64,000 nt of DNA from a virus, in the IMG/VR virus record IMGVR_UViG_3300045988_061615, one strand, 5' to 3'. Under the pieces are notes generated by a model, which saw only the letters and a list, made by a program, of their open reading frames with translations, made no database searches and was not told where the DNA came from. Position 1 is the stretch's first letter, and each line of letters starts with the position of its first letter. This document shows positions 59,060 to 59,780 of the stretch, one piece after another. Position numbers and translations under genes: made by a program.

Positions 59060-59098
59060 ACTGGATTCGACTAGTGGTTTAGGTCGACTTATTTAAAT
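59060..59098 (+). tRNA. 5' half of a split tRNA (acceptor, D-arm, 5' anticodon stem and loop TTTAAAT; anticodon region TAA)
   Basis: ACTGGAT-TC-GACT-AGTGGTTTA-GGTC-G-ACTTA-TTTAAAT. The acceptor strand is exactly complementary, 7 of 7, to ATCCAGT at 59755-59761, about 650 nt downstream. Confidence 0.6.
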
Positions 59099-59141
59099 AG
59101 ATTATAATCAGTTATTTACAGCTTTAGCGTTTATAAAATAC

Positions 59142-59780
59142 GTGAACAAATACGATAAAGAAGAATTAGAACATCTTATCTTTGTCGAGAACCTTTCATA
59201 TGAAGAGATTGGCAGAAGGTATCAAGTAACTGGCAATTCTATTAAGAAGGCTGCTAGGAAACTTGGTATTGAGTTACCAGTTAGAAGAAAGGTTAATCCT
59301 ACAGAAACGTTTAATCGTAAAGACACTAAACATTGTATACAGTGTGGTAACATTTTACGAGACAAGCAAATCAAATTCTGTAGTAGACAATGTAAAGCAG
59401 ATTATGATTATAAAATCTATATTGACAGATGGAAATCAGGTAAAGAACAAGGTATAGTTGGTAAGGATGCACTGTCCAAATTTATCGTGCGATATATGCA
59501 CGAGAAGCATAGTGGCAAGTGCCAGAGGTGTGGGTGGCATGAAGTTAATCCCTTTACTAACAAAATTCCGTTACAAGTACACCATATAAATGGTGATGCT
59601 TTAGACAACAGAGAGGAGAACTTGCAATTATTGTGTCCAAACTGTCATAGCTTAACAGACAATTACGGTAGTTTAAATAAGCATAGTACCAGAACTACTT
59701 TGCAAGAGTACCGTAGTCTAGTCAAGGATAAAGTAAACAGGGGTTCGAATCCCCTATCCAGTGCATTAGTAATGAATTAA
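59142..59780 (+). CDS. HNH endonuclease with N-terminal HTH, inserted within a tRNA gene
   Basis: 212-aa ORF. LQVHHINGDALDNREENLQLLCPNCHS is an HNH core. LSYEEIGRRYQVTGNSIKKAARKLGI is a helix-turn-helix. The reading frame runs through the tRNA 3' half before it stops. Paralogue of 52730..53137. Confidence 0.65.
   Translation: MNKYDKEELEHLIFVENLSYEEIGRRYQVTGNSIKKAARKLGIELPVRRKVNPTETFNRKDTKHCIQCGNILRDKQIKFCSRQCKADYDYKIYIDRWKSGKEQGIVGKDALSKFIVRYMHEKHSGKCQRCGWHEVNPFTNKIPLQVHHINGDALDNREENLQLLCPNCHSLTDNYGSLNKHSTRTTLQEYRSLVKDKVNRGSNPLSSALVMN
59729..59762 (+). tRNA. 3' half of the split tRNA (3' anticodon stem, variable loop, T-arm, acceptor)
   Basis: AAAGT-AAAC-AGGGG-TTCGAAT-CCCCT-ATCCAGT-G. Pairs with the 5' half at 59060-59098. 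Confidence 0.6.

Follow-up and report, generated by a model that had tools for sequence, protein, structure and literature searches.

Homing endonucleases encoded in phage tRNA clusters are known from phages T4 and T5. SegB, encoded in the tRNA cluster of T4, cuts inside the tRNA genes of phages that lack segB and drives the inheritance of the region, and the HNH enzymes of the F-Tfl series of T5 are homing endonucleases that are likewise encoded in tRNA clusters (PMC2330249). Moreover, free-standing endonuclease genes have been found to split host genes by transposition-like insertion (PMC2988022). The locus analyzed here, located in a window of 64,000 nucleotides (IMG/VR record IMGVR_UViG_3300045988_061615), contains an element of this known kind, an intron-less homing endonuclease gene, in a new setting: the gene is lodged inside a tRNA gene, and the host RNA gene is inactivated. 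Specifically, we consider it highly probable (about 85%) that the tRNA-Glu(UUC) gene of an approximately 180-kb crAss-like phage of the human gut has been destroyed by the insertion of a free-standing HNH homing endonuclease gene.

With respect to the identity of the phage, ORF 24717-26966, on the minus strand, encodes a large terminase of the Crassvirales type that is about 30% identical to the named crAss TerL proteins. Related contigs are approximately 160-190 kb long, and the tRNA array of the window includes an amber-suppressor tRNA. The phage, which is uncultured, fits the description of the 'Zeta' group of crAss-like phages (PMC7886860, PMC12386605), and its crAss-like TerL suggests a host among the Bacteroidota. 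A megablast search of positions 58500-60700 against the GenBank phages returned nothing.

Anatomy of the split tRNA locus

Standard ARAGORN and Rfam searches identify 19 tRNAs in an array that spans 48.9-61.6 kb of the window and make no tRNA call at the split locus, where the Rfam tRNA covariance model, used as a test for a functional tRNA, has no match in the 16-kb search. The only alignment that this model produced in a search of 851 nt, at 59641-59763, was rejected as a pseudo-alignment: it scores 15.1 bits (threshold 29), requires a 29-nt D loop and three mismatches in the acceptor stem, and falls in conserved HNH coding sequence.

The split locus is real. The sequence is as claimed in the original prediction, a tRNA in two parts with an HNH ORF inserted between them, and near-identical genomes carry an uninterrupted tRNA in the same place (see below). 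The 5' part comprises the acceptor strand ACTGGAT (59060-59066), the dinucleotide TC and the D arm GACT-AGTGGTTTA-GGTC (59069-59085). The 3' part comprises the T arm AGGGG-TTCGAAT-CCCCT (59739-59755), the complementary acceptor strand ATCCAGT, which was correctly recognized but lies at 59756-59762 rather than at 59755-59761, and the discriminator G (59763). Most of the anticodon stem-loop is missing, having been replaced by the inserted cassette, and several elements assigned to it have to be reinterpreted. In the supposed 5' strand of the anticodon stem, ACTTA, AC alone derives from the tRNA and the rest from the insertion; the supposed start of the loop, TTTAAAT, is wholly insertion sequence; and in the supposed 3' stem strand, AAAGT, GT alone is tRNA. 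The locus is flanked by ORFs for a 95-aa protein upstream and a 297-aa protein downstream (coordinates of the main features are given in Table 1).

Table 1. Features of the split tRNA-Glu(UUC) locus and related elements of the window
Feature	Position	Strand	Evidence
5' remnant of tRNA-Glu(UUC): acceptor strand, D arm, standard positions 26-28	59060..59088	+	Same as nt 1-29, counted sequentially, of the uninterrupted 73-nt tRNA (L003 and others)
Inserted 644-bp cassette, in place of 13 bp (GCACTTTCGATGC)	59089..59732	+	Missing from sister loci; same junctions in many gut metagenome assemblies
Cassette leader, 53 nt	59089..59141	+	Alignment of alleles
HNH homing endonuclease ORF, 212 aa, GTG start	59142..59780	+	ORF list, Pfam HNH, PHROG, dN/dS
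3' remnant of tRNA-Glu(UUC): positions 42-43, variable loop TAAAC... (AAAC), T arm, acceptor strand, discriminator G	59733..59763	+	Matches the last 31 nt of the intact tRNA exactly
Second, free-standing HNH gene (paralogue; 135 aa), flanked by tRNA-Trp and tRNA-Ser(TGA)	52730..53137	+	Protein similarity to the first HNH
tRNA-Glu(CUC), intact; sole Glu tRNA remaining in the array of the window	60970..61044	+	ARAGORN, Rfam

The product of the inserted ORF has an HNH / His-Me finger catalytic core and matches the Pfam HNH family at residues 127-170 (27.8 bits; cut-off 21.4). The matching region contains the motif CQRCGW...HHINGD...NLQLLCPNCH, with the zinc-binding cysteine pairs of a treble-clef zinc ribbon, and 15 of the 17 PHROG families that the protein matches are HNH endonucleases. 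Thus, of the HTH and HNH core that had been predicted, the HNH is firmly recovered, whereas the N-terminal HTH appears as a weak match (Sigma70_r4, E 0.002). A search of solved structures with the HNH protein yielded no informative relative. The GTG start aligns with the ATG of the paralogues. At the other end, the predicted passage of the reading frame through the 3' half of the tRNA is confirmed: the ORF traverses the 3' remnant and reaches a stop 15 nt past it, so that the remnant and the next 15 nt code for the protein from about residue 198 on. Because the ORF lacks a stop codon of its own and the paralogues naturally end near the position of residue 200 of the window protein, the last 15 or so residues can be attributed to readthrough of the tRNA relic and of the 15 nt that follow it. 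In the cassette leader, no promoter-like site was reported.

The intact allele and the distribution of the cassette

Comparison with related phages, which had been proposed as a check, supplied both an uninterrupted copy of the tRNA and the exact insertion site. Through the downstream gene for the 297-aa protein, 29 loci were recovered from IMG/VR, 20 of them with flanks that are 96-99% identical to the window. All 20 close sisters have an uninterrupted 73-nt tRNA-Glu(UUC) in the same slot, with the sequence ACTGGATTCGACTAGTGGTTTAGGTCGACGCACTTTC[G/T]ATGCGTAAACAGGGGTTCGAATCCCCTATCCAGTG, which scores 62.1 bits against the Rfam tRNA model, and a tRNA-Glu (UUC or CUC) occupies the corresponding slot in the other nine, which are more distant; the cassette is missing from all 29 loci. 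Both Glu tRNAs, UUC and CUC, are present in the relatives. Among 28 contigs with the tRNA-Glu(UUC) of this phage in a separate collection of metagenomes, 27 have it intact and one is HNH+. The cassette is thus polymorphic for presence and absence at a single site between nearly identical flanks, with 0/20 IMG/VR sisters and 1/28 metagenome contigs carrying it.

BLAST alignment with the sister locus L003 equates window position 59088 with L003 position 3927 and window position 59733 with L003 position 3941. Because homology to the tRNA stops at the former and resumes at the latter, the insertion is defined as 644 bp (59089-59732) in place of 13 bp, with exact junctions, 59088|59089 and 59732|59733, that leave no ambiguity. 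The lost 13 bp, GCACTTTCGATGC, correspond to standard tRNA positions 29-41, that is, the entire loop with the anticodon TTC and, to either side of it, three stem pairs. Given this replacement of most of the anticodon stem-loop, the tRNA-Glu(UUC) gene is destroyed and its two ends are relics; that they belong to one tRNA follows from homology to the intact gene in near-identical genomes rather than from statistics. The sister alleles thus support the suggestion that a tRNA gene has been disrupted by insertion of a homing endonuclease gene. They do not support the proposed TAA anticodon and Leu-UAA-like identity: the original tRNA was a type I Glu(UUC), and with this assignment the apparent conflict between a leucine tRNA and a short variable loop disappears.

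The exact HNH protein occurs in 241 indexed blocks of public assemblies, always between the same two genes, and the source of these blocks is the human gut metagenome wherever the record states one. A second allele of the HNH gene (212 aa, 89% protein identity) is present at the same site in 43 indexed blocks. The upstream 95-aa protein is found in 2601 indexed blocks, and the 10 places shown for it are all HNH-less. The insertion is, accordingly, a real and widespread minority allele and not an artefact. The HNH+ share of about 10% or less is not what would be expected of an unopposed, efficient drive.

The two alleles have identical junctions, C28|TTA... and ...AAA|G42. Their ORFs differ at 90 of 636 positions, 58 of these 90 being third codon positions, with dS of 0.79, dN of 0.059 and dN/dS of 0.075, while the flanks differ by 1-3%; the HNH ORF is under purifying selection. 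Within these otherwise 14% different sequences, a stretch of 94 nt (59362-59455) is identical, and the core of the leader (approximately 59096-59128) shows a single base difference across 33 nt in the alignment of the alleles. These two conserved segments may reflect gene conversion or an element that acts at the level of the nucleic acid. The pair A27-T43 in the window and G27-C43 in allele 2 resembles covariation within a helix; it was rejected as such, the same bases being present in intact alleles of the L003 type and the L016 type.

Among copies of allele 1, the diversity of the cassette is 0.13% compared with 1.3-2.0% for the flanks, a difference that partly reflects selection of the sample, since exact identity of the protein sequence was the basis on which most HNH+ loci were retrieved. 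The analysis of differentiation in the left flank was confounded by indels. The cassette is also present in genomes with other upstream gene content (L108, L114), and two copies have decayed, one through a 12-nt deletion with loss of the GTG start (L144) and the other through loss of 4 aa together with a D-to-N change within the HNH motif (L166), as expected from the life cycle of homing endonucleases. The cassette therefore shows the expected marks of a homing endonuclease gene, namely, horizontal spread, self-maintenance by its own activity and occasional degeneration.

Paralogues in tRNA arrays and a second split tRNA

The paralogous gene of the window is 39% identical to the first HNH at the protein level (E 1e-18) and, as had been noticed, reads into tRNA-Ser(TGA) (53114-53201), which it overlaps by 24 nt. 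Homologues with 46-62% identity are located between intact tRNA genes in related gut phages, jumbo phages, the crAss-like phage cr116_1 and T5-like phages. Residence in tRNA arrays is a habit of this HNH clade, whose stop codons fall between 17 nt inside and 11 nt upstream of the next tRNA. A homologue of the window HNH in a T5-like phage (33% identity, E 2e-19) ends exactly at tRNA-Thr. A tRNA-encoded tail shared with the T5-like phages was considered and dismissed, the tblastn alignment that continues into tRNA-Thr being a spurious extension across a stop codon. Of the free-standing paralogues, the closest two (P0003, P0005) follow a tRNA-Glu(UUC) at a distance of about 80 nt, a position that is consistent with specificity for tRNA-Glu genes. 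The leaders of the free-standing paralogues contain TAnnTTTG motifs of the Bacteroidota type; the motif was not found in the leader of the window cassette.

A second, independent case of HNH insertion is a split tRNA-Ala (G3:U70) in three related loci (L127, L129, L163), in which a 767-nt insert occupies the anticodon loop and has taken the place of 5 nt, CTTGC (positions 32-36), with the anticodon among them. The intact 76-nt form of this tRNA-Ala is present in 10 sister contigs. The insert carries a full tRNA-Ala as replacement and, downstream of it, a paralogous HNH gene, an arrangement consistent with a cassette that was copied in by break repair. The element resembles that of the window in that it belongs to the same HNH clade (58% identity) and the same phage group, has removed the anticodon and has left matching halves; unlike the window cassette, which replaced 13 nt (positions 29-41), it brings a complete tRNA-Ala and retains its own stop codon. 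Together with the clade in tRNA arrays, this second split tRNA supports the idea that HNH elements targeting tRNA genes form a family.

Alternative readings, the homing model and known systems

The anticodon arm is where the group I introns of bacterial tRNAs are located, and the Zeta crAss-like phages are rich in self-splicing introns (PMC7886860), so the 644 bp could be viewed as such an intron, group I-like or of a novel compact type, whose removal would restore the tRNA at the RNA level. The flanks can still pair at four of the five positions of the anticodon stem, and ARAGORN in intron mode yields a model. Nevertheless, we regard this reading as very improbable. Thirteen exon nucleotides including the anticodon TTC are absent, and the junction sequences cannot assemble a loop that contains TTC, so that removal of the insert, in contrast to what is expected for a precisely inserted group I intron, would not restore the exon. 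No intron or ribozyme family of Rfam 15, the group I core included, was detected at E<=10 in either the 16-kb or the 851-nt sequence. The non-coding part of the insert amounts to 53 nt, the remainder being an ORF under protein-level selection. Furthermore, the alleles conflict: the place of the anticodon reads TTTAAAT in the window and ATCTAAA in allele 2, and ARAGORN in intron mode, one of the checks originally proposed, calls Leu(caa) with a 608-nt intron in the former and Phe(aaa) with a 633-nt intron in the latter. By inspection of the sequences, a 5' exon ending in U combined with an intron ending in G never gives a 7-nt loop in either allele. Finally, the sister insertion in tRNA-Ala is incompatible with an intron because a whole tRNA gene lies inside it. 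The cassette is thus not housed in a self-splicing intron, given the lost exon nucleotides and the lack of an intron family at the E<=10 threshold, nor in an intein, which is impossible where the host gene is an RNA gene; accordingly, the proposals of a compact endonuclease-bearing tRNA intron and of a tRNA that is possibly still spliced or processed find no support with respect to splicing. The ARAGORN models themselves, the tRNA-Leu(caa) with its 3-bp anticodon stem as well as the Phe(aaa), are forced fits and were set aside as artefacts. Less credible still is a working tRNA that takes a new anticodon from the insertion (UAA in the window and CUA in allele 2), or one assembled in trans in the manner of archaeal split tRNAs. 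The 7 nt that follow the stem-like ACTTA or GCTTA do have U33 and A37 in both alleles, but the anticodons differ between the alleles, the 3' strand of the stem is not adjacent to the loop, and the covariance model finds nothing. Moreover, to our knowledge, bacteria possess neither a machinery that joins split tRNAs nor a tRNA splicing endonuclease of the archaeal type.

A further alternative, which we consider unlikely, is that the relics have been co-opted. In the polycistronic transcript of the array, they would pair into a tRNA-like clamp made of the acceptor, D and T arms, with the endonuclease mRNA replacing the anticodon arm. RNase P and 3' processing enzymes might then excise and stabilize the endonuclease mRNA; in another variant, trimming at 59763, before the stop codon at 59778, would produce a non-stop message and thereby throttle a toxic enzyme. 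In the predicted folds of the 704-nt RNA (z-score -3.8), the D and T arms as well as the acceptor helix (nt 1-7 with 697-703) are retained in both the MFE and the centroid structures, and both relics remain perfect. The stop codon lies at the tRNA boundary throughout the HNH clade. Furthermore, the inserted sequence stands exactly where the anticodon stem-loop was, an arrangement also used in engineered tRNA scaffolds. Expression control through tRNA processing has, in addition, been proposed for the T4 segB and T5 F-Tfl genes, in which the ends of the ORFs abut tRNA genes (PMC2330249). Against these points, the clamp is a thermodynamic prediction, unaltered relics are no less expected if repeated homing brings the cassette into new intact genes, and translation through the T arm and the acceptor strand would melt the structure. 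Were such a scaffold to exist, it would be a novel strategy by which a mobile element exploits a host RNA gene, with expression tuned by processing.

Destruction of the tRNA-Glu(UUC) gene by a free-standing homing endonuclease gene is the reading that we favor, and for its mechanism we infer a homing process modeled on T4 SegB and T5 F-Tfl. In a co-infected cell, the enzyme would introduce a nick or a break into the intact tRNA-Glu gene of a sister phage without the HNH gene, within the anticodon arm or beside it; repair templated by the HNH+ genome would then copy the cassette in, and the insertion, by removing the target, would render the carrier immune. The cost would probably be small: the phage tRNA is presumably dispensable, tRNA-Glu(CUC) remains, and the host would supply tRNA-Glu. 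A break near positions 42-43 fits with where the two split tRNAs have their 3' junctions, namely on the 3' side of the anticodon arm, and also with a recurrent HNH-less allele in which 6 nt, TAAACA (positions 43-48), are deleted (contig 045053, which equals L005, L041 and L140, and also L150), given that this deletion begins exactly at the 3' junction of the window. We conjecture that the deletion is a repair scar or a resistant variant.

These observations indicate that intron-less homing endonuclease genes can colonize the interior of tRNA genes, with the anticodon arm as the same hot spot that tRNA introns use, and that such an HNH cassette can survive for a long time as a minority allele of a phage that is abundant in the human gut. 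The pair of diverged alleles, the degenerate copies and the sister event in tRNA-Ala make the locus a natural record of the life cycle of homing endonucleases on RNA genes. Split loci of this kind are invisible to standard tRNA finders, and intron-aware finders mis-call them as intron-containing tRNAs with arbitrary anticodons.

Among the known systems, the group I introns of bacterial tRNAs (cyanobacterial tRNA-Leu(UAA) and tRNA-fMet; Patescibacteria, PMC13011429) share with the window an interruption in the anticodon region and, in some cases, an internal endonuclease ORF, whereas the window cassette is devoid of a ribozyme, has cost the host gene exon nucleotides, and consists almost entirely of an ORF that enters the 3' exon. 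mobE in nrdA of phage Aeh1 and mobA in T4 gene 39/60 are, like the window cassette, intron-less endonuclease genes that divide a host gene (PMC2988022); the protein genes split by them still function as two polypeptides, whereas the host in the window is a tRNA that lost 13 nt and has no visible route to function. T4 SegB, a GIY-YIG enzyme and hence of a nuclease family other than that of the window protein, and the HNH enzymes T5 F-TflI/II/IV resemble the window gene in their location in a phage tRNA array, in their presence or absence among close relatives and in ORF ends that abut a tRNA gene. In contrast to these genes, which lie between intact tRNA genes, the gene in the window resides inside a tRNA gene whose anticodon it has deleted.

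A second split tRNA gene, in sister phages

The tRNA array forms a hot spot of mobile insertions. Sister phages (L127, with the same arrangement in L129 and L163) carry a split tRNA-Ala gene in which 767 nt stand in place of 5 nt of the anticodon loop, the insert consisting of a complete replacement tRNA-Ala and an HNH gene paralogous to that of the tRNA-Glu cassette. The intact form of this tRNA-Ala is found in the related phage loci L159–L162, L164, L165, L045, L048 and L050, at L124 the gene is cleanly replaced, without relics, and the window possesses a third, HNH-less allele.

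Further presence/absence differences adjoin the main locus itself, namely an additional PDDEXK_5 nuclease gene at L108 and, upstream of the 95-aa ORF at L114, another gene set where a 653-aa Band_7 protein otherwise stands.

Conservation, decay and expression of the cassette

The two HNH alleles share a 94-nt run without differences, while 14% of positions differ elsewhere; only ~1e-5 such runs are expected. Within the same segment, synonymous identity is also slightly higher in comparisons with more distant HNH paralogues. This run may reflect gene conversion or, alternatively, an element acting at the DNA or RNA level. Decaying copies of the cassette were also detected (see table).

With respect to expression, free-standing HNH paralogues (L119, L121, L124 and L127) have TAnnTTTG motifs, a Bacteroidota-type -7 element, 5′ of the ATG, 20–40 nt upstream of the start codon. 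The leader of the window's cassette is devoid of a TAnnTTTG motif, and its HNH gene starts with GTG; together, these sequence features suggest that expression of the cassette relies on transcription reading through the tRNA array.

Coordinates of features in the window and in related phage loci
Feature	Location	Remarks
Split tRNA-Ala	L127 1292-2129	
Third tRNA-Ala allele	window 54875-54948	counterpart of split gene
PDDEXK_5 nuclease gene	L108 1996-2427	
Identical run of HNH alleles	window 59362-59455	
Decaying cassette copy	L144, at the position of window 59136-59147	12-nt deletion between AAATAC repeats; GTG start lost
Decaying cassette copy	L166 1501-2127	4-aa deletion; D-to-N within HNH motif
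Intact tRNA-Glu	L003 / L004 3899-3971	
tRNA, anticodon CAA (Leu)	window 48902-48976	
tRNA, anticodon CTA	window 51045-51117	ARAGORN label Pyl
tRNA-like match	window 51124-51191	20.8 bits; just 3′ of CTA tRNA

Variant tRNA-Glu alleles and other tRNAs

An HNH-less tRNA-Glu allele, present in contig 045053 (= L005 = L041 = L140) and in L150, has a 6-nt deletion (TAAACA, positions 43–48) whose start coincides exactly with the window's 3′ cassette junction. This allele probably yields no working tRNA, and the deletion may be either a break-repair scar or a variant that resists cleavage. Among intact alleles, position 37, which lies within the 13 nt lost to the cassette, is G or T depending on the genome; a pyrimidine at this position is unusual.

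Elsewhere in the window's array, the Leu identity of the CAA-anticodon tRNA is uncertain because it spans only 75 nt and lacks a long variable arm, an atypical form for a Leu tRNA of the bacterial type. The weak, truncated tRNA-like match is possibly a tRNA relic. The neighboring CTA-anticodon tRNA, an amber suppressor, fits the TAG reassignment in Zeta-type crAss-like phages.
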